This document shows positions 2,323 to 46,724 of a DNA stretch of 64,000 nt, piece by piece (the first letter of the stretch is position 1; the number at the start of each line of letters is the position of its first letter). The translations under genes and the position numbers were made by a program. The notes under the pieces are model-generated. The model saw only the letters and a program-made list of their open reading frames with translations. It was not told the DNA's origin and ran no database searches. Origin of the DNA: a virus; IMG/VR virus record IMGVR_UViG_3300029057_000206, one strand, 5' to 3'.

Positions 2323-3705
2323 ATGAAAAAAGAAGAATTAATACCGGATGTCCGCTCACGGGAAGATATTAACCGGCTATATCAGGTGTTTACCGCATCA
2401 GGATATCAGCTGTATCCCGTTGGGGGCTGTGTGAGGGATGCTGTAGCCGGAACAGCGCCACACGACTACGATATGTGTACAAATGCTGTTCCGGCGCGGG
2501 TCATTCAGATTTTGCAGGACGGGCAGATTCCGTTCCATGCACCGGGGATCGACTTTGGTACGGTCATTGCAGATGTAAGAGGGAATTCCTACGAAATTAC
2601 GAGCTTCCGGTCAGAAAGAGAATATACCGATGGCCGGCATCCGGGTAAGATCGTATTTGAGAAGGAGATAAATAAGGATCTTTCCAGAAGAGACTTTACG
2701 ATCAATGCGATGGCTTACGATCTGCAGTCCGAAACGGTCATTGACCCATTCAACGGCATCAGCGACCTACAGAACGGCATCATTAAATGTGTTGGAGACC
2801 CTTTCGAGCGCTTTCAGGAGGACGGGCTTCGGATTGTCCGGGCACTTCGATTTGCAATCCGCTATGGGGCAGATTTTGATGGGAAAACGGCGGGAGCAAT
2901 CCATGAGAACCTTGGAATGCTGCAGAACGTTTCAAAAGAACGTATCCTTATGGAATTTAGGAAAATCCTGAGTATGGATAAACCGGTTTCCAGAGTTTTT
3001 GTGGAATATGCAGATGTAATTACCTGCCTTATTCCGGAATTAAAGTCGTGCGTACATTTCAATCAGAACAACAGATACCATAAGCATGATGTGTACGAGC
3101 ATCTGCTCGCTGTAACAGATTTGTGCCAGACCACAAAATTTGAGATTAAGATGGCAGCACTGCTTCACGATATTGGAAAGCCGGACAGCTACATGGAAGA
3201 TGAGAACGGACATGGTCATTTTTACGGGCATCCGGCAGTATCCGCGGAGATTGCAAAGGGAGTTCTGAAAACGGATTTTAAGGGGTTGAAGACGGAAGAA
3301 TATGACCGTATCGTTGCGCTTGTGAAAACGCACGACAAATCAATTTCGTCGTCAAGAAAATCCGTAAAAAGATTCATCGCTGCTCATGGAGCGGATTTCC
3401 TCGATGACTGGGCTGTTTTAAAGAAAGCAGATTTCGATGACCACATTTTCCCGTCAGAACCGCCAAAAAACTGGTTTACGGATATTCCAGATGTCCTGAA
3501 AATCCGTGATGAACTTGTGGCAGAGGAAGAGTGCTTTTCCCTGAAAGATCTGGCAGTTAATGGGAAAGATCTGATGAAAGAACTTGGCCTAAAACCGGGA
3601 AAGAAGATTGGTGCTATCCTGCAGCAGATGCTTGAAGCGGTCATTAACGAAACGGTAACAAACAATCGGGATGAACTTCTTTCCCTCGCACAGAAACTTA
3701 TTTAA
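2323..3705 (+). CDS. cca: CCA-adding tRNA nucleotidyltransferase (pol-beta NTase head + HD domain)
   Basis: Contains the GGCVRD...DYD nucleotidyltransferase motif and the HD motif LLHDIGK. 460 aa. Confidence 0.85.
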   Translation: MKKEELIPDVRSREDINRLYQVFTASGYQLYPVGGCVRDAVAGTAPHDYDMCTNAVPARVIQILQDGQIPFHAPGIDFGTVIADVRGNSYEITSFRSEREYTDGRHPGKIVFEKEINKDLSRRDFTINAMAYDLQSETVIDPFNGISDLQNGIIKCVGDPFERFQEDGLRIVRALRFAIRYGADFDGKTAGAIHENLGMLQNVSKERILMEFRKILSMDKPVSRVFVEYADVITCLIPELKSCVHFNQNNRYHKHDVYEHLLAVTDLCQTTKFEIKMAALLHDIGKPDSYMEDENGHGHFYGHPAVSAEIAKGVLKTDFKGLKTEEYDRIVALVKTHDKSISSSRKSVKRFIAAHGADFLDDWAVLKKADFDDHIFPSEPPKNWFTDIPDVLKIRDELVAEEECFSLKDLAVNGKDLMKELGLKPGKKIGAILQQMLEAVINETVTNNRDELLSLAQKLI

Positions 3706-3716
3706 CACAAAAAAAG

Positions 3717-5409
3717 AAAGCCTGTATCCCAGACTTTCTCAGACCGTAGACAAAGTGCTCCGAGAAACTTCCGTTTCTCGGAGCATTTTTCTTTGTGTTT
3801 ATGAAATTTATTCCGAAAACAGGAAATTTTCCCTTGGATTATGCCATCCGTAATCCCCATTCCTGCTTGCATTTTGCAAGCTTTTTTAAATTCATGCACG
3901 CAAACGTAAGCGCGACTTTCATTGTCATCCGCGCTTTGCCATACAACTGCGTATATCGAAATCCGTGGTTTTCCTTTGCCGTTCCAAAGATTCTTTCAAT
4001 CGTTTCTTTTCTGTGTGAGTATAGCTCCTTCATTCCTTCTGTATGCCGGATATCCTCACATGTTTCCATATAGTCTTCCCATACATGTCTCGTAACAACT
4101 TTTACATGGTTCTTGCTTTCTGTACACTGCGAAAGATACTCGCACTTTTCGCAAATCTGTCCACAGCTTTTATACTCGCGATATCCATCCCGATTTGTCG
4201 TGCTGTAATGCAGAAAGTGATTCCCTGGACAAATATAAGCATCATTATACTCATCATATACATACTCAGATTTCCTGAAAAAGCCATCCTTTGTCATGGG
4301 ACGCTTGTAAGGAAAGACCGGCTTTATTCCATCATCCAAAAGTAGCTTTGCTATTGCAGGAGTTTTATACCCGGCATCAACGATACAGTATTTCATGCCG
4401 ATATCTGCAAGCTTATCGTAAAGGCCTTTAAAAGTTCGACTGTCATGCTCATTACCAGGGTTTACTGTAAAATCAATAATCCATCCATTTTTATCGCATG
4501 CTGTTTCAATCCCATAAGCAAACACATGCTTGTGCTCACCTTTCCGAAACCAGCCGCTCTCAGGATCTGTAGTGCTACACTTAATTGTTTTTTCATCTGA
4601 CGGAACATCATCCGTATAATCTTCAAACTTGTCGTTGCCACCGGAACCAGGTTTGTTGTTATCGTCTTTATCTTTCAACGGTTTCTTTCCGTGCGCTTCT
4701 CTGTCTGCGTTAATGTCCTGACGCAGCATGTCAGCATAAAATAAAGCTTCCTGTTTTGCGATTCGTTTCTGCATCTTTCTGTTGTTCGCCCGCGCTTTCA
4801 CATGTGTTGCATCAACAAAAATCTCTGTTGAATCAACCAGTTTGAAACGGTAACACTCCTCAAGGATACGCTGGAAAATCTGCTCGAATAAGTCGGTATC
4901 TTTAAAACGACGGGTATAGTTTTTCCCGAAAGTAGAAAAATGAGGGACCGGATCATAAAGTTCAAGTCCAAGGAACCAACGGTAAGCCATGTTTACTTCA
5001 ATCTCTTTGATTGTCTGCCGCATGCTTTTGATTCCATACAGGTATTGAATAAGCGGTATCTTAATAAGCGTAACCGGATCAATACTTGGTCTACCCATTC
5101 CGTCGGAATAAGTATCACGGACGAGATCATAGATGAATGTCCAGTCAATAGCTTTGTCAATAAGTCGTAGAAGATGATTCCGCGGAACAAGATCATCAAT
5201 ACATACCATCTGCATTTGCTTTCTTACTTTTTCTGTTTCTTGTGTCATCATAGAACAATACCGCCTTTTTTGATACCTTTATTATACCAAAAAGAGACTG
5301 AAAAGTCTTGAAAATACTGACTTTTAGCCTCTTTAATACAGAAAAATCCCCGGCAAAAAGCCGAGGACTTTGTCTACAGTCTGAGAAAGCCTGTATCCCA
5401 GACTTTCTT
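3717..5409 (-). mobile_element. IS1182-family insertion sequence (~1.69 kb)
   Basis: Imperfect terminal inverted repeats ctttctcagac(c/t)gtagacaaagt(g/c)ctc lie at 3735-3761 and 5361-5387. They are flanked by a ~20-bp direct repeat aaagcctgtatcccagactttc (3718-3740 and 5387-5409). A single transposase ORF lies inside. Confidence 0.7.
3839..5251 (-). CDS. IS1182-family (IS5/IS4-superfamily DDE) transposase
   Basis: 470 aa. The N-terminus has the transposase-InsH-like LVPRNHLLRLID motif, followed by a DDE domain and a C-terminal Cys-rich region typical of IS1182. Confidence 0.85.
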   Translation of the reverse strand: MMTQETEKVRKQMQMVCIDDLVPRNHLLRLIDKAIDWTFIYDLVRDTYSDGMGRPSIDPVTLIKIPLIQYLYGIKSMRQTIKEIEVNMAYRWFLGLELYDPVPHFSTFGKNYTRRFKDTDLFEQIFQRILEECYRFKLVDSTEIFVDATHVKARANNRKMQKRIAKQEALFYADMLRQDINADREAHGKKPLKDKDDNNKPGSGGNDKFEDYTDDVPSDEKTIKCSTTDPESGWFRKGEHKHVFAYGIETACDKNGWIIDFTVNPGNEHDSRTFKGLYDKLADIGMKYCIVDAGYKTPAIAKLLLDDGIKPVFPYKRPMTKDGFFRKSEYVYDEYNDAYICPGNHFLHYSTTNRDGYREYKSCGQICEKCEYLSQCTESKNHVKVVTRHVWEDYMETCEDIRHTEGMKELYSHRKETIERIFGTAKENHGFRYTQLYGKARMTMKVALTFACMNLKKLAKCKQEWGLRMA

Positions 5410-21780: not shown

Positions 21781-22275
21781 ATGAAAGAGTACAAAGAATT
21801 TAAAGATCAGGATGAAATGTATAAAGTAATTACTTTCTGGAGTAATTGCTGCGGTGACCTGCATCACAACGGGGAATACGATGTCAGCGAGGAACAGCTT
21901 CCGGAAGAATTGCAAAGGGCATACCGCGAACTGTGGGAAGAAGGCAACGGATGCCTGGAATATCTTCTTGAGTATGGCGGCAGATATTACGTTGCGTTGT
22001 CTGCGGAATTTGATGGCGATTACGCAGATATGCTTGGTCTTTCCATGGACGAACTGTATGCGGTTGGTAAATGCAATGCACTTAAACTGTATTGCACGGA
22101 TCTGTTTAAGGATACACTGCTTCTTATGGCAAAAAAGCCGCTAGATGGAGATTGCCACGAATTCATATTCCTGGTTCCGGCAATGGAGTCGAAGGAAGTT
22201 TACGATGAAATCGAGAAGGAAATCAGCGAAAAAATCTGGGATGTCCCGAAGGAAGTTGTGGATAAGAGAAGATAG
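21781..22275 (+). CDS. hypothetical acidic protein
   Basis: 164-aa ORF. Confidence 0.5.
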   Translation: MKEYKEFKDQDEMYKVITFWSNCCGDLHHNGEYDVSEEQLPEELQRAYRELWEEGNGCLEYLLEYGGRYYVALSAEFDGDYADMLGLSMDELYAVGKCNALKLYCTDLFKDTLLLMAKKPLDGDCHEFIFLVPAMESKEVYDEIEKEISEKIWDVPKEVVDKRR

Positions 22276-22416: not shown

Positions 22417-22462
22417 AAATTCCTTTGACAATTTTCCAGATGGCGCAATATGTGTATTGTAA
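22417..22462 (+). promoter_or_regulatory. promoter element P copy 3
   Basis: ttcctttgacaattttccagatggcgcaatatgtgtattg. Confidence 0.5.
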
Positions 22463-22602
22463 AGGTCATAAACCGGGCTGCCAGGGTTACCGGCTGGCAG
22501 AAATCCTTTCGATATTTGTTTACGCTTCCGGGGAAACCCGGAAAGGAGCAGGAGGACAGCAGCACATGCTGCTTCCGGGTCCGATTCCCGGATGCTTCTT
22601 TT
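22455..22602 (+). ncRNA. promoter-P-driven structured small RNA, family A copy 1 (~150 nt)
   Basis: The 5' hairpin is gctgccag-ggttaccgg-ctggcag. The terminator is a T-arm-like hairpin ccgggtccgattcccgg followed by a U-run. Three copies have conserved stems and vary only in loops. An SD-preceded mini-ORF (MLLPGPIPGCFFYK...) lies inside. Confidence 0.45.
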
Positions 22603-22665
22603 ACAAGACCGCACGAAGCGGCGCAAAAACCACATAAACATGACAAAATACAGGGAGATTAAAAA

Positions 22666-24969
22666 ATGAATCAGAATAAGAAGATAGCAGAGAAAAAATC
22701 AAGACCATACCAGCAGGAATGCATTGATAAGGTAGACAGCTTAAAAGAAGGAAGATTCCTGATTGCTCTTGCAACAGGGCTTGGGAAGACATGGATCTTC
22801 TCCCACTTTAAGAGATACGGAAGGGTACTTATTCTTTCACACAGGGATGAACTGGTCAACCAGCCGAGACGGTATTTCGACTGTAGTTTTGGCGTAGAAA
22901 AGGCAGAAAACCATTCCAATGGGGAAGAGGTAGTATCTGCGAGTGTTCAGACACTCAGCCATGACTCCCGTCTTAAGCAGTATAAGCCGGACGATTTCCA
23001 CACGATCATCATTGATGAGGCGCACCACGCTGCCGCACCATCCTATAAGAAGATCTTAAATTATTTTTCCGGCGCTAAGCGTGTAATCGGTGTCACGGCA
23101 ACTCCGAAGCGTGGCGACAACGTCCGGTTAGATGACGTTTTTAACGAGATTATTTATGCAAAGGATCTTCGTTGGGGGATTAAAAATAAATATTTAAGTC
23201 CGGTGCACTGCCGGGAGGTCCGTGCAAAATATTCCCTGAAAGGCGTAAAAAAATCTATGGGGGATTTTAATGTATCCGATTTGGACGGTTGTATTACGGA
23301 AGAAGCTGTAATAAGTGTTGCAAAAGTTCTTACAGACTGTCTCCAGGAGAATCGGCATATTCTTATTTATTGTACTACTGTCAGAACCTGTAATTTCCTG
23401 AAGGCAGTAGTTGACAAACTGCTCCCGGAAAAAGAACGTGGCAGTGTTGCTGTTTTATCAGGGAAAACACAGGAAGAAGATAGAAAAAATATGCTTGATG
23501 GTTTTATGAACGGGAGTGTCCGCGCCATTATTAACTGCATGGTTTTAACAGAAGGTACAGATCTTCCTATTGCGGATACCATTATCAACTTCCGGCCGAC
23601 GTGCAACGCGTCTTTGTATCAGCAGATCATCGGAAGAGGAACCCGGCTCTATGAAGGTAAGGAAAACTGTTTATGCATTGATATTCTTCCAGATGATGGC
23701 AGCGGGACAAGAAATCTGTGTACAGCTCTTACTCTTTTTGGTATAGATGCAAAACTTCTTGGAAAGAAACAGTCTCGAATGCTTGAAGGTGAGATTGATC
23801 CGCTTGAGATTAGCGATGAAATTGCAGGACGATTTGCAGAACTTACAAAGGCGTATGAATATCGGTTGGAGCAGGTTAATCGCTTTGTGCAGGAGCAGGA
23901 AGAAATTATATCTTCTGCGCGGAAGAAACCACATGCAGATTTAAGCGACCTTGCGCATGCAGTAGATAAATATAATTCAAAGAAAATGGATGAATTCCAA
24001 AATGATTATGATTTTCTTGGAATGGATTACTCACTTATGCCGGATACGGAACATCGTTATTGTATCAAACCTACATGGAATGACCATATTTACCTTGCTG
24101 ATCCAGATGTTATGGGTAATACAACAGTTACGTTTGATCTTACTGCCAGTGTCGGGAAATATTATATCGGTGAAATGAAAATGCAGGATGCAATTTCATT
24201 TGTTCATGATTTTTGTATGGTATCTCCAGATTATATGAAATATTCCTGGAACGTGGCATTACAAGATGAATGGGGGAAAATAAAAGCAACTGAAAATCAA
24301 ATTGGACGTCTTATGAATGAGTATGACGGGTTTCACAAAGGAAATATTAACAAACTTCAAGCATCCAGACTGATTGATCTTGCCTCTCGTATTTCGAAGA
24401 TGAAGGCAGAGGGGAAAATGATGCTTATTACACCAAGAATGCAGGAAAAAACAATTGATAAAAAAAAGAAAATGTTTAAGGAAATACTCGAAAAGGAACT
24501 GAGGGCAAAAGAGCAGGGGCGTAGTGAGTTTGGAGAATTCCAGTCGAAAATCTTTGCTTTGGCAGAAAAAAAGAAAAAAGACGAAGAGAAATTAAAGAAC
24601 CAAAAGCCTTTGGAAGAAGAAATGCTCGAAAATGGGGCGATTACAGTTAATATTGCTGTTTTTAGTTCAAAAAAAACAGCAAGCGATGCGCAGATAAAAT
24701 TTCTTGGTAATTTAAAAGATAAATTAAAAAACAGAGGAGTGGCTGTCGATAAAAAAATTCCTTATATAGGAATGGGAGCAGAAGAGGCAAGTGTATATAT
24801 TACTATATTAAAAACGCTTGTAGATCGTAACGTAGACCTTATAAAATATGGTAAAAAAATTTATTTTAATCCAAATACAATCATGAGTGTTGTATTAAAA
24901 CTAAAGGACACTTCATCCAGAGAAATTAAATGTTGTATCCCGTTCGAAAAAATAGAAGAATTGAGATAA
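22666..24969 (+). CDS. SF2 DEAH-box helicase (COG1061/type-III-res-like core) with a ~350-aa K/E-rich C-terminal extension
   Basis: Motif I ATGLGKT, motif II IIIDEAHH, motif III TAT, motif VI QQIIGRGTR. There is no HD nuclease domain. Confidence 0.75.
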   Translation: MNQNKKIAEKKSRPYQQECIDKVDSLKEGRFLIALATGLGKTWIFSHFKRYGRVLILSHRDELVNQPRRYFDCSFGVEKAENHSNGEEVVSASVQTLSHDSRLKQYKPDDFHTIIIDEAHHAAAPSYKKILNYFSGAKRVIGVTATPKRGDNVRLDDVFNEIIYAKDLRWGIKNKYLSPVHCREVRAKYSLKGVKKSMGDFNVSDLDGCITEEAVISVAKVLTDCLQENRHILIYCTTVRTCNFLKAVVDKLLPEKERGSVAVLSGKTQEEDRKNMLDGFMNGSVRAIINCMVLTEGTDLPIADTIINFRPTCNASLYQQIIGRGTRLYEGKENCLCIDILPDDGSGTRNLCTALTLFGIDAKLLGKKQSRMLEGEIDPLEISDEIAGRFAELTKAYEYRLEQVNRFVQEQEEIISSARKKPHADLSDLAHAVDKYNSKKMDEFQNDYDFLGMDYSLMPDTEHRYCIKPTWNDHIYLADPDVMGNTTVTFDLTASVGKYYIGEMKMQDAISFVHDFCMVSPDYMKYSWNVALQDEWGKIKATENQIGRLMNEYDGFHKGNINKLQASRLIDLASRISKMKAEGKMMLITPRMQEKTIDKKKKMFKEILEKELRAKEQGRSEFGEFQSKIFALAEKKKKDEEKLKNQKPLEEEMLENGAITVNIAVFSSKKTASDAQIKFLGNLKDKLKNRGVAVDKKIPYIGMGAEEASVYITILKTLVDRNVDLIKYGKKIYFNPNTIMSVVLKLKDTSSREIKCCIPFEKIEELR

Positions 24970-25143: not shown

Positions 25144-25376
25144 GTTGCACCACGCAAGGGTGCAGGGGTGAAATATTATACTGAATCGTCGCTGCCTGCA
25201 TAGATATAGTTGCATCCCTTATGGGATGTATGGGTTGAAATTCAATAGAAACAGATGCATTCGGAGGTGTTACAAGTTGCACCCCCGCAAGGGGTGCATG
25301 GGTTGAAAATAAGAAATGGTAGGAAGGAATTCAGATATGAACATTAGTTGCATCCCGCAAGGGTGCAGGGGTGAAG
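25144..25376 (+). CRISPR. CRISPR array 1: 4 degenerate type I-C-like repeats (31-34 nt) and 3 spacers (34-37 nt)
   Basis: Repeats are gttgcaccacgcaagggtgcaggggtgaaat, gttgcatcccttatgggatgtatgggttgaaat, gttgcacccccgcaaggggtgcatgggttgaaaa and gttgcatcccgcaagggtgcaggggtgaag. They end in the I-C-like (G)GTTGAAAT. Spacer 2 is near-identical to a spacer in array 3. Confidence 0.75.
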
Positions 25377-25536
25377 TAAAAGGATGTTGCCAGATATGTC
25401 AACCAAACTCGACTATTGAATAAATAACCGAGCATGATTCCTTCGGAACTGCTGAATCATGTAGTCTGACTGGTGAAGCGATGGTATACATATTTGAACA
25501 AATTAAACAAAAATACAGAATCAGAGGGAAAATAAT

Positions 25537-33980: not shown

Positions 33981-34028
33981 AAAATCTTTGACGATTTTTC
34001 AAAAGGCGCAATATGTATAGTGTAAAGG
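33981..34028 (+). promoter_or_regulatory. promoter element P copy 6
   Basis: aaaatctttgacgatttttcaaaaggcgcaatatgtatagtg. Confidence 0.5.
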
Positions 34029-34165
34029 TCATAAACCGAGCTGCCAGGGTTACCGGCTGGCAGAAAATCCTTTCGAAAAATGTTTACGTTCCGGGAAATC
34101 CCCGGAAAGGATAGTGGGTACGCAGCGCAAGTTATTCCGGGTTCGACTCCCGGATATCCTTTTTC
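34019..34165 (+). ncRNA. structured small RNA family A copy 2
   Basis: It has the same hairpins as copy 1. The terminator is ccgggttcgactcccgg followed by a U-run. Confidence 0.45.
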
Positions 34166-34197
34166 AAAATTGCAGGAAAAATGTGGAGGAAAAGAGA

Positions 34198-34503
34198 ATG
34201 GATGAACTGATCAAGAAACTTCGGATGTATGCAGACACATACAAAAAAGAACCAGCCGGACGGGAAGTTGAAGGTACCGTGGAATTGCTCGAAAATTCTG
34301 CAGATGCTTTGCAGGAAGCAGGGGAGGCTGTTCAAAAATTAAAGCAGAGATTTGTGGATGGAATAGATGTCCATTACCAGGGACATGATGCCGACGATTA
34401 CATTGAGTGTCCTTTCTGCGGATACGAGGTTGCAGCGATCGACGATTACTGTGAGCTGCGCCCAAATCATTGTCCGAAATGTGGAACAAAGCTGATATAC
34501 TAG
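34198..34503 (+). CDS. hypothetical zinc-ribbon protein (CPFCG...CPKCG)
   Basis: RBS gtggagga, then ATG 34198. Confidence 0.45.
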   Translation: MDELIKKLRMYADTYKKEPAGREVEGTVELLENSADALQEAGEAVQKLKQRFVDGIDVHYQGHDADDYIECPFCGYEVAAIDDYCELRPNHCPKCGTKLIY

Positions 34504-35680: not shown

Positions 35681-35686
35681 ATATAG

Positions 35687-35776
35687 CGCAGACACCGGGG
35701 ATCGAACCCGGACAGCGGGTGTGCCGCATGCCACATTAGCAGTGTGGAGGGGTACCATTTACCTTTATATGTCTGC
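35687..35776 (-). tRNA. tRNA-Ser(GCT), class II
   Basis: Acceptor GCAGACA/TGTCTGC. Anticodon arm ccacaCTGCTAAtgtgg. Long variable arm. T-arm ccgggTTCGATCcccgg. Confidence 0.6.
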
Positions 35777-35781
35777 ATAAG

Positions 35782-38168: not shown

Positions 38169-38501
38169 TTGAAATGTTTGACATGCAAGAAACACTGGTC
38201 GCAGGGAGGCCGCTGTTCAGAGAACGTGAGAAACTGCCTGCATTATGAGGAAGAACCAAGAGGAAAAATGGTCCGCACAGAACTGTCTTTTCGTATGGAT
38301 GCAGAGGCGGAAACTCCGGTGGTCAGATTTGGAGAGAAAATACTGGTTTCCGATGGTTCAAAAGCGGTCGAGATGACTGTGGTCAAGATCAACTGGGTTA
38401 ATCTTCGGGATATGCTCTGCAATGTATCCGCGGATTATCATGAGAATGAGATGCCGCGATTTGAGAAAGAAAAGAAGTTCAAAGCATTACATGGAAAATA
38501 G
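38169..38501 (+). CDS. hypothetical protein (TTG start with a strong RBS aaaggaggagg)
   Basis: 110-aa ORF. Confidence 0.4.
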   Translation: MKCLTCKKHWSQGGRCSENVRNCLHYEEEPRGKMVRTELSFRMDAEAETPVVRFGEKILVSDGSKAVEMTVVKINWVNLRDMLCNVSADYHENEMPRFEKEKKFKALHGK

Positions 38502-38608
38502 TTGCATTCCAGTGGAATGCATGGGGTGAAAGAAATAGGCAAATCGCATGACAATTTCTGAAATTAAATTGTTGCGCTCCCGTGGAGGGGGGCGTATGGA
38601 TTGAAATG
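38501..38608 (+). CRISPR. mini-array: 2 degenerate I-C-like repeats and 1 spacer (36 nt)
   Basis: Repeats gttgcattccagtggaatgcatggggtgaaag and gttgcgctcccgtggaggggggcgtatggattgaaat. Spacer aaataggcaaatcgcatgacaatttctgaaattaaatt. Confidence 0.6.
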
Positions 38609-39005: not shown

Positions 39006-39052
39006 AAAAACTTTTGACGATTTTTTAAATGGCGCAATATGTATCATGTAAA
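39006..39052 (+). promoter_or_regulatory. promoter element P copy 8
   Basis: aaacttttgacgattttttaaatggcgcaatatgtatcatg. It contains a 14/15 match to spacer S1 of array 4. Confidence 0.5.
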
Positions 39053-39190
39053 GGTCATAAACCGAGCTGCCAGGGTTATCGGCTGGCAGAAATCTTTTCG
39101 ATATTTGTTTACACTCCGGGGAAACCCGGAAGGGGTAGTGAGGACGCAGCGTGTGCTGTTTCCGGGTTCGATTCCCGGGTATCCCTTTTG
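39045..39190 (+). ncRNA. structured small RNA family A copy 3
   Basis: gctgccagggttatcggctggcag...ccgggttcgattcccgg followed by a U-run. A second similar terminator hairpin lies at 39402-39435. Confidence 0.45.
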
Positions 39191-39464
39191 ACTGCCACAT
39201 ACGGTCTTCTCAAAATTCAGCCGTCTGCGGCCTGTGGAACTTTCCACTGGACCAAAATAACGATAACCGCCAGAATAACAGCAGCGTGCGTTGGCGTGAG
39301 AACTATCGGCGCACAGGGATTACTCCTTTCATATTTATCTATCAAACCTTTCCGTACATCGTATGGAAAGGTTATGGGACAGCAGGTGCATAGACATGAA
39401 CTATTCCGGGATCGTTTCCCGGATGTTCCATTTTTAAAACATTAAAACAAATCATAGGAGGGAA

Positions 39465-40193
39465 TTGATGATGGAGAAAGAAGTAGTATATGTTGCAGAA
39501 CTGGATTCCGATGTTGATGATGTCGTTGCGGCACATTACTTATTTAACGAGGGTGTGTTAAAGTGTGTAGTATGCGATCCATATCCAAGAACACCGGAGG
39601 GGTTGGCACGAAAGGGAAAGCTGGAAGCGCTTGGCATCGATGTGGTTAAGAAAATGCCACCGGTTGCAAAATATGTGTTTGTTGGCGGCGCTCTTACGGC
39701 TGTTGCTGGCTATATCCGGATGCACCATGTCGACTGGCTGGTAATGAACGGAGGCTTTGTTGGAGCAAATATTGCGACCTTTGAACTGGATAAGTTCAAG
39801 GGGAAGAACACTGTCCGTACCTTCAATTTCAACTGCGATGTTGTGGCTGCAGATACGGTTTTGAAAACTGATGAGAAGCATATTTCTCATATTGTTCTTG
39901 TCGGAAAAAACGTCTGCCATGACGTCCGAAATACGAAAAATGGTCTCTGGAGTGGCGAGAAATACAAGAAATTGTTCGATGAGTACCGGGTTAAGGATGA
40001 GAAGCGTCAACACGACTTGCTTGCCTGCCATGAGGGGCTTGCATTTCTGCGGGGAACCAATGCGATCTGTGAGTATGAGATGGTAAGACCATACAACACA
40101 GGCTTGAATGGCAAGCTGACGCAGTGGGGTAGCACAAAAACCATGGAAACACCATATCGCGAAGTGCTTGCTGCTGTTGGCTACCAGAATTAA
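39465..40193 (+). CDS. hypothetical protein
   Basis: 242 aa. RBS aggaggg. Confidence 0.5.
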   Translation: MMMEKEVVYVAELDSDVDDVVAAHYLFNEGVLKCVVCDPYPRTPEGLARKGKLEALGIDVVKKMPPVAKYVFVGGALTAVAGYIRMHHVDWLVMNGGFVGANIATFELDKFKGKNTVRTFNFNCDVVAADTVLKTDEKHISHIVLVGKNVCHDVRNTKNGLWSGEKYKKLFDEYRVKDEKRQHDLLACHEGLAFLRGTNAICEYEMVRPYNTGLNGKLTQWGSTKTMETPYREVLAAVGYQN

Positions 40194-40195
40194 AA

Positions 40196-40300
40196 GCTGC
40201 ATCATGTGCGGGGGTGTATGGATTGAAATGTCGGAGTATGGTGTAAGAATCATATATATTCCTACGTTGTGCTCCTCCCGGTTGGTGCACGGGTTGAAAT
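40196..40300 (+). CRISPR. mini-array: 2 degenerate repeats and 1 spacer (36 nt), abutting the stop codon of the previous gene
   Basis: Repeats gctgcatcatgtgcgggggtgtatggattgaaat and gttgtgctcctcccggttggtgcacgggttgaaat. Confidence 0.55.
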
Positions 40301-41891: not shown

Positions 41892-42110
41892 GTTGCGCCC
41901 CATTGGGTGCATGGGTTGAAATCTTTATGACCTTCTGAAAAGTGAGGGCATCTTAGTTGCACCCCCGCAAGGGATGTATGGGTTGAAATTCAATAGAAAC
42001 AGATGCATTCGAAGGCGTTACAAGTTGCACCCCGCGAGGGGTGTATGGGTTGAAATTGCAGAAAGCTCAGGATTGGAAGGTTGCATCCTATGGGATGCAT
42101 GGATTGAAAC
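41892..42110 (+). CRISPR. CRISPR array 3: 4 degenerate repeats and 3 spacers (34, 34, 23 nt)
   Basis: Repeats gttgcgccccattgggtgcatgggttgaaat, gttgcacccccgcaagggatgtatgggttgaaat, gttgcaccccgcgaggggtgtatgggttgaaat and gttgcatcctatgggatgcatggattgaaac. Confidence 0.75.
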
Positions 42111-42205
42111 GAACATATTTGTTATTATTTATTATTGAGATCAGAAAGGTCTGCAGTCAGTTAATCTGGCTGCAGATTTTTTTTGCAATTTTTTAAAAAT
42201 TTTCC

Positions 42206-42252
42206 AAAATCTTTTGACGATTTTTTAAAAGGCGCAATATACATATTGAAGG
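42206..42252 (+). promoter_or_regulatory. promoter element P copy 9. It contains an exact 15-nt match (42204-42218) to spacer S1 of array 4, overlapping the -35-like TTGACG
   Basis: ttccaaaatcttttgacgattttttaaaaggcgcaatatacatattg. Confidence 0.55.
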
Positions 42253-42445
42253 GATAAACAGGGGCTTACCGTTTGTTTCTTCAATAAGAGTTTTTCTCTT
42301 ATATGCCTCCTTAAGTTTCCTGCGCTGCATTTACAGCATTTTGGCAGCGCAGGGGGAATCCACAGGACTGCATTTGACGTTGTGTGGCGGCCTGCTCATC
42401 CGGTTCAACCCCGGAGGATTCCCTTACCGCTTATTTTTGCGGAGA
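42250..42445 (+). ncRNA. promoter-P-driven structured RNA, family B copy 2
   Basis: Hairpin cctgcgctgc/gcagcgcagg. Its 3' end catccggttcaaccccggaggattccc is homologous to 11790-11830. A T-run terminator follows. Confidence 0.35.
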
Positions 42446-42467
42446 CAAAAATTTTAAAAAATATTCA

Positions 42468-42514
42468 AAAATTCTTTGACGATTTTTTAAAAGGCGCAAT
42501 ATGTGTATTGAAGG
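42468..42514 (+). promoter_or_regulatory. promoter element P copy 10 (proximal promoter of the cas operon)
   Basis: aaattctttgacgattttttaaaaggcgcaatatgtgtattg. Confidence 0.55.
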
Positions 42515-42547: not shown

Positions 42548-42578
42548 AGTTAAAAGTTGTGCCCCTATGGGGTGCATG
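42548..42578 (+). repeat. solitary degenerate CRISPR repeat (gttgtgcccctatggggtgcatgggtaataag) between promoter P10 and the cas5c RBS
   Basis: Matches the local repeat consensus at ~24/31 positions. There is no adjacent spacer or second repeat. Confidence 0.45.
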
Positions 42579-42595
42579 GGTAATAAGAGAAAGGA

Positions 42596-43270
42596 ATGGA
42601 AAAAGAAAAAATGGGAGTGAAACTAAAAGTCTGGGGAGATTACGCATTGTTCACCAGACCAGAACTGAAAACTGAACGGTATACATACGATGTGATGACA
42701 CCGTCGGCGGCTAGAGGAATTCTGGAATCTATCTACTGGCATCCGGGACTTCGGTGGTATGTAGACAAGATTCATGTATTAAATCCGATTGCCACTACGA
42801 GCGTGAGAAGAAATGAACTTCTCAGTAAGATACCAAAGTCAAATATGCTGCAGGCATACAACGGCGGGGATGTGAAACTGTATAACTCGTCAAGAGACGA
42901 TATTATCCAGAGGGCATCTGTTATTCTCCGGGATGTCTGCTATGTGATTGAGGCGCATTTTGAAATGACAGGGAAAGCGAGCCCAACAGACAGCCCGGCA
43001 AAGTTTATAAGTATCTTTAACAACAGGGCAAGAAAAGGGGCATGTTATTCGATGCCGTATTTTGGTGTAAGGGAATTCCCGGCACACTTTGAACTCTGCG
43101 AAGGAGATGAAAAGATCCCATCCTACTATGAAGGACTTCCGGACAAAGATCTCGGGCTGATGCTTTATGATCTGGATTACTCCTGCGGTAGAGATATCCA
43201 GCCAATGTATTATCATGCGATTATGAAAAACGGCGTTATTGACGTTGGGAACAGTGAGGTGCTTCGATGA
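42596..43270 (+). CDS. cas5c: Cas5c (Cas5d), the type I-C pre-crRNA-processing Cascade subunit
   Basis: The N-terminus has the hallmark VKLKVWGDYALFTRPE. 224 aa. Confidence 0.85.
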   Translation: MEKEKMGVKLKVWGDYALFTRPELKTERYTYDVMTPSAARGILESIYWHPGLRWYVDKIHVLNPIATTSVRRNELLSKIPKSNMLQAYNGGDVKLYNSSRDDIIQRASVILRDVCYVIEAHFEMTGKASPTDSPAKFISIFNNRARKGACYSMPYFGVREFPAHFELCEGDEKIPSYYEGLPDKDLGLMLYDLDYSCGRDIQPMYYHAIMKNGVIDVGNSEVLR

Positions 43271-45006
43271 TCCTTCAGTCACTTGTGAAATTATATGAAA
43301 CACTTGCGGATCAGGGAAAAGTGTCCCGTCCTGGCTGGTGTAATGCAAAGGTATCCTATGCGGTGGTTTTAAACCATGATGGGACGATTAAAGATATTGT
43401 TTCCGTGAAACAGAAAGTGAAGAGAGGAAAGAAGACTGTTGAAATTCCAATAATTATGCAGGTTCCAGAGATGGTCACCCGCGCTAACAACATTGCCTCC
43501 AGCTTTCTCTGCGAAAATGCAAAGTATCTCTTTGGGATTGACGAAAAGATGAGTTTGCGTACACTGGAATGTTTTAAGGCGGCAAAGAAAAAACATCTTG
43601 ATATTCTTGATGTTGTGGATTCACCTGTAGCACAGACGGTATGTAACTTTTTCCGTTCATGGGATCCGGAACAGGCGTTGGATCAACCGGCTGTTGCAAA
43701 ACTTGCAGAAGAGTTTTATAAAGGCGGAAACCTCGTTTTTGAAGTAGATGGGGAATATGTGCATGATAATGAAGAAGTCCGCAGGGCATGGATGGATTAC
43801 AGCAGTGTACCATATGAAATGGTAACTGGAAGATGCCTTATTACTGGAGAGGAAGCGGAGATTGCCCGCACGCACGGGAAAATCAAAGGAGTTCCGGGAG
43901 CACAGTCATCTGGCGCGTCGCTTGTATCATTTAACGGAGCATCCCTTGAGTCTTATGAAAAAACACAGAGCTACAACGCGCCGATTAGCACCTATGCGGC
44001 GTATGCATATGTGACCGCGCTGAATTACTTGCTTTCTACGGACGGGTATCACAGCAAGGTAGGAGATTCCATGGTGGTTTTCTGGACAGATTCCGGGGAT
44101 GTGGATGATGTGAGCAGACTGCGGAAGATGATGGGAAGCATCAATGAAAAGGATCACACCCCTACAGATACGGATGAAAAACTGTACGTCCTCTGCCTTG
44201 CACCAAATGCCGGGCGAATTGCAGTCCGGTTCTTCTATGAGGATGCGATCGGGGTAATCTGGGAAAACCTGTCCGAACATGCCAGTCGGATGAAGATTGT
44301 AAAACCAGTATTTGAGGATCAAGAATTTATCAATATCTGGCAGATGCTCATGGAGACAGTCAACCAGAATCTTACAGATAAAACACCTGTCCCGCATATG
44401 TCAGCAATGACGTTACAGTCAGTCATTTCGGATACACCGTATCCGCAGAGTCTGTATGCAGGTGTGTTATCTCGTATCCGCGCGGAGCACAAAGGTGTTA
44501 CTTACAGAAAAGCATCGATTATTAAAGCTTTTTTAATAAAGAACTACAAATGGGAGGAAGGAAAAAATATGGAAGCATTAAATGAAGGCTGTAAGGATCG
44601 GGCATATATCCTTGGAAGACTGTTTGCGGTTATGGAAAAGGCACAGAAAGAAGCAGTTGGCAATATCAACCAGACAATTTGTGATAAGTTTTACAATTCC
44701 GCGTGCACAACACCAAGATCGATCTTTCCAGTACTGATCAGGCTATCTAACAGTCATTTAAGTAAGTTGAAACGGACAAAACCGGGGAGAGGATATTATT
44801 TTACAGCTAAAATGCAGGATTTAATGGATAAAATTCCGGTAACAGATGATGATCCGGGATTCCCGCGGCGTTTCTCATATGAGGATCAGGGTAAGTTTGC
44901 ACTTGGTTATTATCATCAGATGCGGGCGGAATATACAAGCAGTAAGTTAAAAGATAATGATTCAGAAGGTGATCAGACAAATGCAGAGAATATGGAGGAA
45001 AACTAA
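43267..45006 (+). CDS. cas8c: Cas8c (Csd1), the type I-C large subunit
   Basis: The N-terminus MILQSLVKLYETL is typical of Csd1. 579 aa. Its start overlaps the cas5c stop. Confidence 0.85.
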   Translation: MILQSLVKLYETLADQGKVSRPGWCNAKVSYAVVLNHDGTIKDIVSVKQKVKRGKKTVEIPIIMQVPEMVTRANNIASSFLCENAKYLFGIDEKMSLRTLECFKAAKKKHLDILDVVDSPVAQTVCNFFRSWDPEQALDQPAVAKLAEEFYKGGNLVFEVDGEYVHDNEEVRRAWMDYSSVPYEMVTGRCLITGEEAEIARTHGKIKGVPGAQSSGASLVSFNGASLESYEKTQSYNAPISTYAAYAYVTALNYLLSTDGYHSKVGDSMVVFWTDSGDVDDVSRLRKMMGSINEKDHTPTDTDEKLYVLCLAPNAGRIAVRFFYEDAIGVIWENLSEHASRMKIVKPVFEDQEFINIWQMLMETVNQNLTDKTPVPHMSAMTLQSVISDTPYPQSLYAGVLSRIRAEHKGVTYRKASIIKAFLIKNYKWEEGKNMEALNEGCKDRAYILGRLFAVMEKAQKEAVGNINQTICDKFYNSACTTPRSIFPVLIRLSNSHLSKLKRTKPGRGYYFTAKMQDLMDKIPVTDDDPGFPRRFSYEDQGKFALGYYHQMRAEYTSSKLKDNDSEGDQTNAENMEEN

Positions 45007-45007
45007 G

Positions 45008-45919
45008 ATGAGCACACCAATTAAGAACAGATATGATTTCGTAGTATTATTCGACGTAGAGAATGGAAATCCGAACGGTGATCCGGATGCCGGAAATATG
45101 CCGAGAGTTGATCCAGAGACTGGCATCGGGCTTGTGACAGATGCCTGCATAAAGCGCAAGATCCGTAATTATGTGGAAACTGTAAAAGAAGATGCAGCCG
45201 GGTTCAAGATCTATATTAAAGAGGGGGTCCCGCTGAACCGGAGTGACCTTAAGGCAGTCGAAAGTCTTGGTATTGACGTCGGTGACGACAAAAATGCACT
45301 TGAAGATGTAAAGAAGCTGAAAAAGACAGATGAAGATGTGGATCTTAAGCTCCGTGACTATATGTGTAGTAATTTCTATGATATCCGTACATTTGGTGCT
45401 GTCTTGACTACCTTTACAAAGGCGGCATTAAACTGTGGACAGGTACGTGGCCCGGTACAGATTGGTTTTGCAAAAAGTATTGATCCTGTTTTCAGCCAGG
45501 ATATTACTGTAACCAGAGTTGCAATCACAACGGAAAAGGATGCGGAAAAGAAAAATACAGAAATGGGAAGAAAGAGTATTATTCCTTATGGACTTTACCG
45601 TGTGGAGGGATATATTTCTGCTAATCTTGCCCGTAAGACCACCGGCTTTTCTGAAGACGATCTGGAACTGCTTTGGGAAGCAATCATTAACATGTTTGAG
45701 AATGACCATTCCGCAGCACGCGGGAAGATGGCAGTGCGTGAGCTCATCGTATTCAAGCATAACAGCGAGCTTGGCAATTGTCCATCGTACAAACTGTTTG
45801 AAACTGTTGATGTTAAGAAGAATGATGGTGTTGAGTTTCCTCGTAAATATTCCGATTATGCAGTGACTATTCATGAGGATGCGATTCCGGATGGCGTGAC
45901 AATGACTCGCAAAATCTAA
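45008..45919 (+). CDS. cas7c: Cas7c (Csd2), the type I-C backbone subunit
   Basis: Contains the hallmark NPNGDPDAGNMPR. RBS ggagga, then ATG 45008 (the track ORF start 44957 overlaps cas8c). Confidence 0.85.
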   Translation: MSTPIKNRYDFVVLFDVENGNPNGDPDAGNMPRVDPETGIGLVTDACIKRKIRNYVETVKEDAAGFKIYIKEGVPLNRSDLKAVESLGIDVGDDKNALEDVKKLKKTDEDVDLKLRDYMCSNFYDIRTFGAVLTTFTKAALNCGQVRGPVQIGFAKSIDPVFSQDITVTRVAITTEKDAEKKNTEMGRKSIIPYGLYRVEGYISANLARKTTGFSEDDLELLWEAIINMFENDHSAARGKMAVRELIVFKHNSELGNCPSYKLFETVDVKKNDGVEFPRKYSDYAVTIHEDAIPDGVTMTRKI

Positions 45920-46168: not shown

Positions 46169-46724
46169 AGCTACGCCCCATGGAGGGGCGTATGGATTGA
46201 AATACCAAAATCTTTTGACATTCTTATAAATGGTAACAGCTACGTCTTATGGGGTACGTATGGATTGAAATCATAATAATTGTAGAGATCTCAATACAAA
46301 ATAAAGCTGCGTCTCATGGAATACGTATGGATTGAAATGAAAAGGCGAGTTTGCGAAAGCAGATATTGGAATGTTGCGTCTCGTGGAGTACGTATGGATT
46401 GAAATTCCAACTTTAACTACATAACTATCCTGATAAACTTGCTGCACCCCATGGAGAGTGTATGGATTGAAATTTAAAAAATCATGGATAACATCTGCGA
46501 TAAGACGTTGCACCTCGCTAGGGGTGTATGGGTTGAAATTTCCATAATCGGTAGCCAATTATTATCATTAGGTGTTGCACCCCATAGAGGGTGTATGGAT
46601 TGAAATTATATAAAAATGATGAATATGTAAAAAAAATAAAAGAGTTACGCTCCATGGAGTGCGTATGGCTTGAAACCTCTTATTTTTTTAAAGATATCAC
46701 AATTACGCCCAAAGTGGGCTTACG
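46169..46724 (+). CRISPR. CRISPR array 4: 8 mutually divergent repeats plus a truncated ninth, and 8 spacers (26-38 nt)
   Basis: For example agctacgccccatggaggggcgtatggattgaaat, gttgcgtctcgtggagtacgtatggattgaaat, gttgcacctcgctaggggtgtatgggttgaaat and ttacgctccatggagtgcgtatggcttgaaac. The stem halves change in a compensatory way. The last partial repeat ends 22 nt before the ATG of the family-X membrane gene. Confidence 0.75.

Follow-up and report, generated by a model that had tools for sequence, protein, structure and literature searches.

Three copies of a structured RNA of about 150 nucleotides (nt), here called Family A, lie on the plus strand of a 64,000-nt stretch of DNA from the virus record IMGVR_UViG_3300029057_000206, which was analysed at its full length and is referred to below as the window (coordinates of the features are collected in Table 1). 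Each copy stands behind a repeated promoter, promoter P, and ahead of a gene in the same orientation: copy 1 precedes a helicase gene, copy 2 the gene of a small zinc-ribbon protein, and copy 3 a second structured RNA and the gene of a nucleoside-hydrolase-like protein. An earlier note, made from the letters alone, had proposed a family of three such RNAs, and the three copies were confirmed. A covariance model built from them (R1) scores them at 167 to 185 bits (E value of 3e-36 for copy 1) and finds matches in relatives and in sister lineages, and 30 distinct variants were collected among relatives. Aligned together with their promoter sequence (55 nt) and 3' flank (about 35 nt), the three copies showed a mean column identity of 83%. 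The pattern of the first hairpin (P2) occurs exactly three times in the window against an expectation of 0, and the pattern of the T-arm, a hairpin resembling that of a transfer RNA (tRNA), occurs seven times against an expectation of 0.1. The seven comprise the three Family A copies, one site in the RNA just 3' of copy 3, and three sites of the tRNA array, of which two fall inside called tRNAs and the third in a gap. The z-scores of the single-sequence folds were modest (-2.8, -1.3 and -1.5 for the three copies).

The proposal that these are structured RNAs driven by promoter P likewise held: the promoter core GGCGCAATATGT stands upstream of all three copies, and the family is non-coding. This core occurs six times exactly in the window and 14 times with at most two mismatches, where 4 occurrences are expected. 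The whole promoter is a conserved block of about 45 base pairs (bp), cTTTGACGATTTTTcAAAwGGCGCAATATGT followed by GTATTGAAAGGnATAAAC, as the sequence after each core showed, and its conservation spans the region from the -35 box to about +20. The block is found at no fewer than 10 sites of the window (11614, 13029, 22442, 25056, 31218, 34005, 38131, 39031, 42231 and 42493). A sigma-70 scan revealed a good -35 box and no canonical -10 box, so that an element-specific factor may read promoter P; this suggests a dedicated sigma factor or polymerase. Besides Family A, promoter P serves a CRISPR array (25056), the cas5-cas8c-cas7 operon (42493) and ordinary genes (13029, 31218 and 38131). It also drives two longer RNAs of about 215 nt (11614 and 42231), designated Family B, which occupy 11626-11840 and 42243-42470 on the plus strand. 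The 3' end of Family B consists of a closing helix and a T-arm-like hairpin, for example GGGAAUCC...UCCGG-UUCAACC-CCGGA-GGAUUCCC. The second Family B RNA is directly followed by another promoter P, which marks it as a stand-alone RNA gene. A search of the Family B/cas leader against Rfam in E-value mode gave only sub-threshold partial matches.

Relatives of the three copies were reached by exact-protein look-ups, by searches with R1 and by one degenerate-pattern scan of metagenome contigs. The look-ups place the window within contigs of 200-360 kb that are present in many human-gut metagenomes; the 101-residue zinc-ribbon protein next to copy 2 is indexed in 2192 blocks of the metagenome collection, and one homologue is annotated from a metagenome-assembled genome of Agathobacter. 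With R1, the same three loci were found in 20 near-identical relatives, together with extra copies, and diverged copies were found in sister lineages whose helicase is 64-73% identical. The degenerate-pattern scan added further variants, giving a total of 40 Family A matches that represent 30 distinct sequences. Several members are decayed or rearranged (L033 12393-12518, L033 14591-14746, L078 1865-2015, and L099 2996-3119, in which P2 is deleted); depending on the member, the 5' domain is joined to another 3' end, the T-arm has degenerated or P2 is lost, which shows that the two domains of the RNA are separable. When INPHARED phages and PLSDB plasmids were searched by BLAST, neither the RNA nor 20 kb of its context had a match, except for a single 52-nt one to a tRNA-Asn. 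Exact patterns of the P2 hairpin and of promoter P gave none in IMG/VR or among GTDB species representatives, and a degenerate pattern of the linker gave two loci in IMG/VR, neither of which is Family A. Nor was Family A found at the loci of distant zinc-ribbon homologues, which include prophages and other large elements, or at those of helicase homologues of 41-49% identity, which lie in plasmid-like ParA/RecJ/TopA contexts. Family A thus appears confined to one element lineage, which limits the power to detect covariation. Literature searches returned no description of Family A or of the element.

The structure was predicted by consensus folding with RNAalifold, by single-sequence folds and by a hand-checked model, all of which agree on the parts described here. 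Behind promoter P, the Family A cassette consists of a conserved 5' domain of about 90 nt, made up of hairpin P2, a CU-rich linker (UCCUUUCGAnAnnUGUUUAC) and hairpin P3, and of a Y-shaped 3' domain. P2 is a 7-bp hairpin, CUGCCAG-GGUUAYCGG-CUGGCAG. Twenty-nine of the 30 variants keep it, 99.5% of its cells are paired over the 30, and internal changes lead only to G-U wobble pairs. The earlier note had called this hairpin invariant, which is true of copies 1 and 2; copy 3 has one change in the loop (ggttaTcgg). The linker between P2 and P3 is single-stranded and CU-rich (AAAUCCUUUCGAnAnnUGUUUAC). P3 has the form UCCGGG...CCCGGA and, having been taken as equally shared, turned out not to be invariant, reading UCCGGGAAAUCCCCGGA in copy 2. 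A further helix, P1 (GUAAA/UUUAC), is doubtful because its 5' strand is part of GTATTGAAAGGnATAAAC, the initially transcribed consensus of all P promoters, and because it is broken in the L039 variants; this strand may lie upstream of the true transcription start site.

The 3' domain is a three-way junction. Its closing helix, P4 (8-11 bp), pairs a purine strand (GGAAAGGAUA, GGAAAGGAGCA or GGAAGGGGUA) with the strand that enters the U-run, and encloses an 8-nt junction with an invariant GG, a hairpin P5 of 4-6 bp that often has a GNRA loop, and the T-arm. The T-arm had been described as running directly into the U-run. Instead, a strand of 5-9 nt intervenes, which pairs with the upstream purine strand (GGAUA/UAUCC, GGAGCA/UGCUUC or GGGGUA/UAUCCC). 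The hairpin that had been described as terminal thus forms only the inner arm of an element shaped like a Y. Minimum-free-energy folds of the isolated 3' domain gave the same three-way junction in 27 of 30 variants. In the alignment of the 30 variants, 96.3% of helix cells are paired, compared with 34-51% when the partners are slid, and four of the seven P4 pairs have changed on both sides. The variants of P4 include GGAUA/UAUCC, GGGAUA/UAUCCC, GGGGUA/UAUCCC, GGAGCA/UGCUUC, GGGAUA/UAUCUC and GGGAUAA/UUAUCCC; relative to GGGAUAG/AUAUCCC, the last of these has a G-to-A change on one strand that is compensated by an A-to-U change on the other. Changes in P2 and in the T-stem are few and mostly wobble-preserving. 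The alignment follows the model to which it was fitted, and its members are close relatives; covariation in P4 alone should be read as positive structural evidence, the other helices being conserved without covariation.

The likeness of the 3' end to tRNA, for which the T-arm had been cited, proved to be broader: there is also a hairpin like a variable arm, the closing helix resembles that of an acceptor, and the 5' junction holds a GG. As a whole, the domain has the appearance of the final third of a class II tRNA, with counterparts of the variable arm, the T-arm and the acceptor helix and a GG reminiscent of the D-loop. The T-arm has a 5-bp stem and a 7-nt loop. Its stem is CCGGG/CCCGG in 23 of 29 variants, and four of the six other stems differ by a wobble pair only. 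All 29 have U, C and A at T-loop positions 1, 3 and 5 (the equivalents of U54, C56 and A58); position 2, the equivalent of psi-55, varies (16 C, 12 U and one G). The T-loop and the GG of the junction probably stabilise the junction in the manner of the tRNA elbow. In the tRNA array, a 100-nt gap (35681-35780, minus strand) holds a probable class II tRNA-Ser(GCU)-like gene that default ARAGORN and Rfam runs missed. The variable arm and T-arm at this site, GCGG-CACA-CCGC-UGU-CCGGG-UUCGAUC-CCCGG, closely parallel P5 and the T-arm of Family A. The same modular end (closing helix, T-arm-like hairpin and U-run) also closes the RNA at 39195-39436 and both Family B RNAs.

Searches for known RNA families nevertheless set limits to this likeness. 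A search of the whole window at the Rfam gathering score returned 14 tRNAs only, none of them in Family A, and no Rfam 15 family, tRNA or transfer-messenger RNA (tmRNA) fits the family. ARAGORN called no tRNA in Family A by default and no tmRNA even at 70% thresholds. With thresholds relaxed to 80%, it produced poor cloverleaves of inconsistent identity (Arg-ACG for copy 2, Ala-AGC for copy 3 and none for copy 1). The stretch from the closing helix to the T-arm contains only the 8-nt junction and a hairpin whose loop has 4 nt; D-arm and anticodon arm are absent, and no CCA is encoded. Neither a decoding tRNA nor a true form of the tRNA mimic that the earlier note had suggested is supported by these results, and tRNA or tmRNA identity was ruled out for lack of a usable ARAGORN or Rfam call. 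The relation to tRNA is a resemblance, possibly one of origin, and not membership. In E-value mode, the best Rfam match was the Deinococcus Y RNA (RF01053), at 16-19 bits against a threshold of 80 and over model positions 43-85, which comprise the 'V' and 'T' stem-loops; tRNA-Sec reached 15-17 bits, far below threshold. The Y RNAs YrlA and Deinococcus Yrn1 resemble Family A in having a short 'V' hairpin (often with a GNRA loop), a UU, and a T-arm with the stem CCGGG/CCCGG and the loop UUCGAUU (PMC4201824). Y RNAs carry the Ro-binding motif GNCGAAN0-1G on a long stem formed by their 5' and 3' ends (PMC4201824), whereas Family A has no such helix joining its ends, no mimic of a D-arm, and an end formed by a U-run. 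The motif, sought as the regular expression G.CGAA.?G, is present in none of the 30 variants, and, although bacterial Y RNAs are encoded beside an rsr (Ro60) gene, no protein of the Ro60/TROVE family appears among the Pfam matches of 50 window proteins, which include all neighbours of the three copies. With 16-19 bits against 80, no Ro-binding motif and no rsr gene among these 50, a bacterial Y RNA was ruled out.

Y RNAs do show that modules of this kind can be recognised by tRNA enzymes (PMC4201824). By analogy, the closing helix stacked on the T-arm might mimic an acceptor/T minihelix that is cut by RNase P and RNase Z and tailed by the CCA-adding enzyme of the element, yielding a 5' RNA and a tRNA-like RNA of about 60 nt; the module would then act as a signal for processing or stability, or else as a decoy of host factors that bind tRNA. 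We consider such processing very unlikely. It would accord with the constant U, C and A of the T-loop and the invariant GG, with the parallel between the V-like hairpin and T-arm and the probable class II tRNA at 35681-35780, with the weak partial Rfam matches to Deinococcus Y RNA and tRNA-Sec, and with the CCA-adding enzyme that the element encodes; there is also the precedent of YrlA in M. smegmatis, whose tRNA-like domain is cleaved by RNase P and receives CCA (PMC4201824). The geometry is less favourable, however: an unpaired nucleotide stands between T-stem and closing helix, the latter has 8-11 bp rather than 7, there is neither a discriminator nor a CCA, and the 3' strand pairs into the U-run. 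Position 2 of the T-loop is variable, and the tRNA calls were absent at normal thresholds and inconsistent at relaxed ones. The CCA-adding enzyme, a 13-gene tRNA array and RNAs with tRNA-like ends all occur in the one window.

The earlier note had also considered that Family A might encode a small toxic peptide or act as a CreT-type toxin, in which rare tRNAs are sequestered under repression by the neighbouring Cascade. Copy 1 does carry a strong Shine-Dalgarno (SD) sequence, GGAGG, 10 nt before an ATG that opens a 23-codon open reading frame (ORF). This arrangement was found in copy 1 only: the start position reads AAG in copy 2 and GTG followed by 12 codons in copy 3, the frame differs from copy to copy owing to indels, and hairpin P5 contains the putative start codon. 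The string FRVR(F/L)P(G/D), thought to be kept in frame by all copies, is the T-arm read in a frame different from that of the 23-codon ORF, and in copy 3 two stop codons precede it. No ORF or frame is conserved, and substitutions in the helices are compensatory. As for a CreT-like system, the window does contain a type I-C Cascade without cas3 and several degenerate mini-arrays, and the occurrence of small RNAs beside them, with an SD and ATG in copy 1, recalls CreTA. Family A differs from CreTA in lacking a conserved mini-ORF or SD-AUG-rare-codon unit, an adjacent creA-like guide to its promoter, and a spacer match: none of the 15 spacers of the five mini-arrays, compared with the window, matches it. 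The only notable self-match is that of spacer 46204-46238, which is identical at 15 of 15 positions to a promoter-P copy at 42204-42218; the promoter in question drives a Family B RNA and not a Family A copy, and the other best spacer matches are chance-level 12- to 16-mers. The peptide and CreT readings, having failed these sequence tests, were rejected, and we regard them as scarcely credible. Separately, the match of spacer 46204-46238 may reflect self-regulation of promoter P by Cascade.

The position of the copies relative to genes is more informative. At none of the three window copies was a convincing promoter found between the RNA and its gene; between copy 1 and the helicase gene, the only promoter-like site overlaps the start codon. 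Among the relatives, a downstream ORF could be called at 18 of 29 sites, always co-oriented and usually about 35, 58 or 270 nt away, and promoter P was present upstream at 24 of the 29. In some relatives, a second paralogue of the zinc-ribbon gene comes with a Family A copy of its own (L007 414-565). This fourth copy and its 101-residue paralogue lie right after the helicase gene (L007 414-906; also in L054, L065 and L103), indicating that RNA and gene move as a unit. At the copy 3 locus, the RNA is followed by a second terminator-bearing RNA, so that expression of the gene requires read-through of two modules. A homologue of that second RNA (L041 22-137) has a canonical T-loop and a compensated T-stem, CAGGG/CCCUG. 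Such a location, in the 5' untranslated region (UTR) of a co-oriented gene without a convincing promoter, suggests a leader or attenuator that acts in cis. A consensus scan for intrinsic terminators was positive for the T-arm and T-run of each copy. Identity among paralogues is 85-92% in the 5' domain and 68-78% in the 3' domain, the latter with compensation; this is the usual pattern of a sequence-constrained sensor joined to a structure-constrained expression platform.

The existence of the family, its architecture, its compensated closing helix and its 5'-UTR position are established; termination, its conditionality and its control we infer from them. Our preferred reading, held tentatively and at slightly less than an even chance, is that the Family A RNAs are transcription-attenuating, cis-acting leaders of a 200-360-kb extrachromosomal element of human-gut Firmicutes. 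Transcription would start at the element-specific promoter P, and the 5' domain of about 90 nt, with P2, the single-stranded CU-rich linker and P3, would be made first. The Y-shaped 3' domain would follow, its closing helix ending in the U-run and enclosing the variable-arm-like hairpin and the T-arm. Were the closing helix to form, RNA polymerase would terminate and a stable RNA of about 150 nt would be released; were it prevented, polymerase would read through into the helicase gene, the zinc-ribbon gene, or the second RNA and the hydrolase-like gene. Prevention might occur in one of two ways. A segment of the linker, AUCCUUUC, nearly duplicates the 3' strand of P4, and in all copies it can pair with the 5' strand, GAAAGGAU; this pairing was chosen by RNAalifold and by folds of transcripts truncated before the 3' strand. 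Alternatively, a factor bound to the 5' domain might render polymerase resistant to the terminator in the manner of nut or put sites. The terminated leader product may also act as a small RNA (sRNA) in trans.

Family A shares with terminator riboswitches and attenuators, including the tRNA-like yjdF riboswitch (PMC9142559), a promoter-proximal 5'-UTR location, a conserved 'sensor', and a terminator that varies in sequence with its structure conserved. The copies precede different genes, and the pairings AUCCUUUC:GAAAGGAU and GAAAGGAUA:UAUCCUUU could be mutually exclusive, as in such switches. Family A differs from them in that its terminator is a three-way junction with a T-arm rather than a simple hairpin and in that no Rfam family matches; moreover, its genes (helicase, zinc-ribbon and hydrolase-like) suggest no common metabolite, and the antiterminator pairing lacks covariation. 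Processive antitermination sites, such as lambda nut, the put RNA of HK022 and the EAR RNA, provide a second comparison. They too are near-identical RNAs 3' of a repeated promoter, present several times per mobile element and followed by terminators. The sequence-level conservation of the 5' domain and the two tandem terminator modules at the copy 3 locus fit this comparison. Unlike these sites, Family A places the terminator inside the conserved unit; it has no sequence or model similarity to them, and no N-, Q- or LoaP-like factor was identified.

Several observations weigh against the attenuating leader. The U-runs are short (3-6 U), and termination may be poor at the four variants that have 3 U only, yet these retain the module. 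The pairing of AUCCUUUC with GAAAGGAU shows no clean covariation, purine-rich and pyrimidine-rich partners pair easily in any case, and variant L033 9780 weakens it; as evidence for an antiterminator, this predicted pairing is only suggestive. Rfam searches that admitted E values as high as 10 (copy 1) or 5 (copy 3) returned no riboswitch or leader. Orthologous RNA regions are 84-95% identical, a small excess over the 82-85% of the adjacent helicase coding DNA, and conservation so little above that of coding DNA does not prove selection on the 5' domain. Finally, identical 5'-domain variants occur in different paralogues (L053 1133 and L075 5327), which hints at gene conversion among them. The last two observations would also be expected if the cassette had no specific regulatory role, being a duplicated promoter and terminator whose 3' part is a decayed tRNA fragment, spread by recombination at promoter P and kept alike by gene conversion rather than by selection for a function of the RNA. 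The repetition of promoter P at least 10 times and the decayed copies (L033 12393, L033 14591, L078 and L099) would agree with such an origin. We nonetheless judge it quite improbable: compensatory changes keep the closing helix across paralogues, changes in P2 and the T-stem are mostly wobble-preserving, the junction persists in 27 of 30 variants in spite of the low identity of paralogous 3' domains, and the key T-loop positions and the junction GG are invariant.

A further possibility, which is compatible with the leader model, is that the products of about 150 nt are sibling trans-acting sRNAs. Their invariant CU-rich linker, UCCUUUCGAUAUUUGUUUAC, would pair with the SD regions of a class of mRNAs that begin at another repeated cassette, K, and would repress or time their translation. 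Nine K cassettes lie in the window. Each has a T-rich stretch, TTTCATATT, a spacing of 6-7 nt and G/TTAAAC (TAAAA in one copy), and in most copies 12-20 nt then lead to (C)GAAAGGAG and an ATG, giving a 5' UTR of the form GUAAAC...(AU)CGAAAGGAG. As would be expected of sibling sRNAs, Family A comprises several paralogues that have separate promoters and terminators, and the linker, which is nearly invariant, contains an anti-SD-like UCCUUUC. Most of the K cassettes have CGAAAGGAG at the ribosome-binding site; in the window, this motif occurs eight times (seven on the plus and one on the minus strand), each time with an ATG within about 20 nt, compared with two occurrences of AGAAAGGAG. The reverse complement of the linker, GUAAACAAAUAUCGAAAGGA, mirrors the K UTR at both its 5' end and its SD, and the best predicted duplex reaches -19.9 kcal/mol with the gene at 21781, followed by -16 to -17 kcal/mol with those at 17526 and 19537. 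The complementarity spans 6-10 nt at each of the two sites. The energies, however, do not surpass what shuffled linkers give: 45 genes reach -12 kcal/mol or lower where shuffled linkers reach a mean of 40.7, and 31% of the shuffles do as well. The complementarity may also stem from pairing in cis, given that the 5' end of the RNA itself is GUAAAGG and its own closing-helix strand GAAAGGA, and in a pure form this reading leaves the strict 5'-UTR position before promoter-less genes unexplained. We regard the sRNA reading as rather unlikely, yet as the main rival or complement of the leader model. Gram-positive bacteria have sibling sRNAs with CU-rich anti-SD motifs, for example LhrC1-5 of Listeria. 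These resemble Family A as paralogous sRNA genes of about 100-150 nt with their own promoters and terminators and a single-stranded CU-rich motif complementary to ribosome-binding sites; Family A differs in always being the 5' leader of a gene, in a target prediction that does not rise above background, and in its tRNA-like 3' end.

The leader and sRNA roles could be combined with the tRNA likeness. In this proposal, which we hold to be quite unlikely as it stands, a factor that recognises tRNA would open or stabilise the elbow-like terminator, and the linker of the released RNA would also silence K-class mRNAs through their GUAAAC 5' end and their SD, CGAAAGGAG. Candidate factors would be the CCA-adding enzyme of the element, RNase P or RNase Z, an enzyme that modifies the T-loop, or a ribosome on the SD-like strand. 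If this were correct, read-through into the P-class genes would report the state of tRNA or of the translation machinery, and a tRNA-derived terminator would serve as a sensor, coupled with an antisense timer, linking two promoter classes of a giant gut element.

Family A is best described as a structured 5' leader, possibly also an sRNA, with an unusual tRNA-derived three-way-junction terminator. It is a real RNA family that is absent from Rfam 15. Leaders and sRNAs are known kinds of RNA; what is new is the family itself and the unusual form of its terminator. The element is very common in human gut metagenomes and mostly unannotated, and the cassette of promoter, leader and terminator provides a first handle on its transcription. 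The 3' module illustrates how part of a class II tRNA, from the variable arm through the T-arm to an acceptor-like helix, can find new use as a structured terminator or as a module at the 3' end. Should a switch or a function in trans prove true, Family A would constitute a new leader or sRNA class for Rfam and a testable case of tRNA-elbow mimicry in transcription control.

Table 1. Positions of Family A, its promoters and neighbouring genes, and other features of the window.
Feature	Position	Strand	Remarks
Promoter P, copy 1	22420-22454	+	TTGACA 22425-22430; core GGCGCAATATGT 22442-22453
Family A RNA, copy 1	22455-22603	+	R1 166.6 bits; 5' end approximate
Copy 1, hairpin P2	22478-22500	+	CUGCCAG-GGUUACCGG-CUGGCAG
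Copy 1, CU-rich linker	22501-22525	+	AAAUCCUUUCGAUAUUUGUUUACGC; anti-SD-like; possible antiterminator strand; complementary to K-class 5' UTRs
Copy 1, hairpin P3	22526-22543	+	UUCCGGG-GAAA-CCCGGAA
Copy 1, Y-shaped 3' domain	22542-22602	+	closing helix AAAGGAGCA/UGCUUCUUU; junction GGAGGAC
Copy 1, V-like hairpin	22558-22573	+	
Copy 1, T-arm	22574-22592	+	U-run ends at 22602
ResIII/Helicase_C helicase gene	22666-24969	+	767 residues; starts 58 nt 3' of copy 1
Promoter P, copy 2	33983-34017	+	TTGACG 33988-33993; core 34005-34016
Family A RNA, copy 2	34018-34167	+	R1 168.2 bits
Copy 2, parts	P2 34041-34063; P3 34090-34106; 3' domain 34106-34164; T-arm 34136-34154	+	
Zinc-ribbon protein gene	34198-34503	+	101 residues; about 30 nt after the U-run of copy 2; no promoter-like site between
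Promoter P, copy 3	39009-39043	+	TTGACG 39014-39019; core 39031-39042
Family A RNA, copy 3	39044-39192	+	R1 184.6 bits
Copy 3, parts	P2 39067-39089; P3 39115-39130; 3' domain 39130-39189; T-arm 39161-39179	+	
Second structured RNA	39195-39436	+	in tandem after copy 3; closing helix AUGGGACA/UGUUCCAU; T-arm-like hairpin 39405-39423; U-run; 27 bits to R1
Nucleoside-hydrolase-like protein gene	39471-40193	+	240 residues; 3' of copy 3 and the second RNA; followed by a 2-repeat mini-CRISPR array (40196-40300)
K promoter/5'-UTR cassettes	1445, 6470, 7100, 8986, 17476, 19488, 21734	+	
K promoter/5'-UTR cassettes	38979, 6429	-	
CCA-adding enzyme	2323-3705	+	PolyA_pol head, HD and tRNA_NucTran2_2 domains
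DDE transposase	3839-5251	-	
TnpB gene	9610-10872	+	IS605 OrfB/Cas12f-like
Type I-C Cascade cas5, cas8c, cas7	42611-45919	+	no cas3, cas1, cas2 or cas4 in the window
Five short CRISPR arrays	25144-25377, 38501-38607, 40196-40300, 41892-42110, 46170-46676		degenerate repeats

Most proteins of the element have no Pfam or PHROG match. Those that could be assigned include PcfJ-like, LPD1, DNA methylase, BRCT-domain and BspA-type leucine-rich-repeat proteins; the element may be a phage or a plasmid. Relatives carry TnpB/Y1 insertions at other places, such as in L005, where an insertion replaces the copy 3 region. Two of the CRISPR spacers, 25242-25275 and 41990-42023, are identical at 32 of 34 positions, and a solitary CRISPR repeat (42557-42587, plus strand) lies in the P-driven Cascade leader just upstream of cas5.

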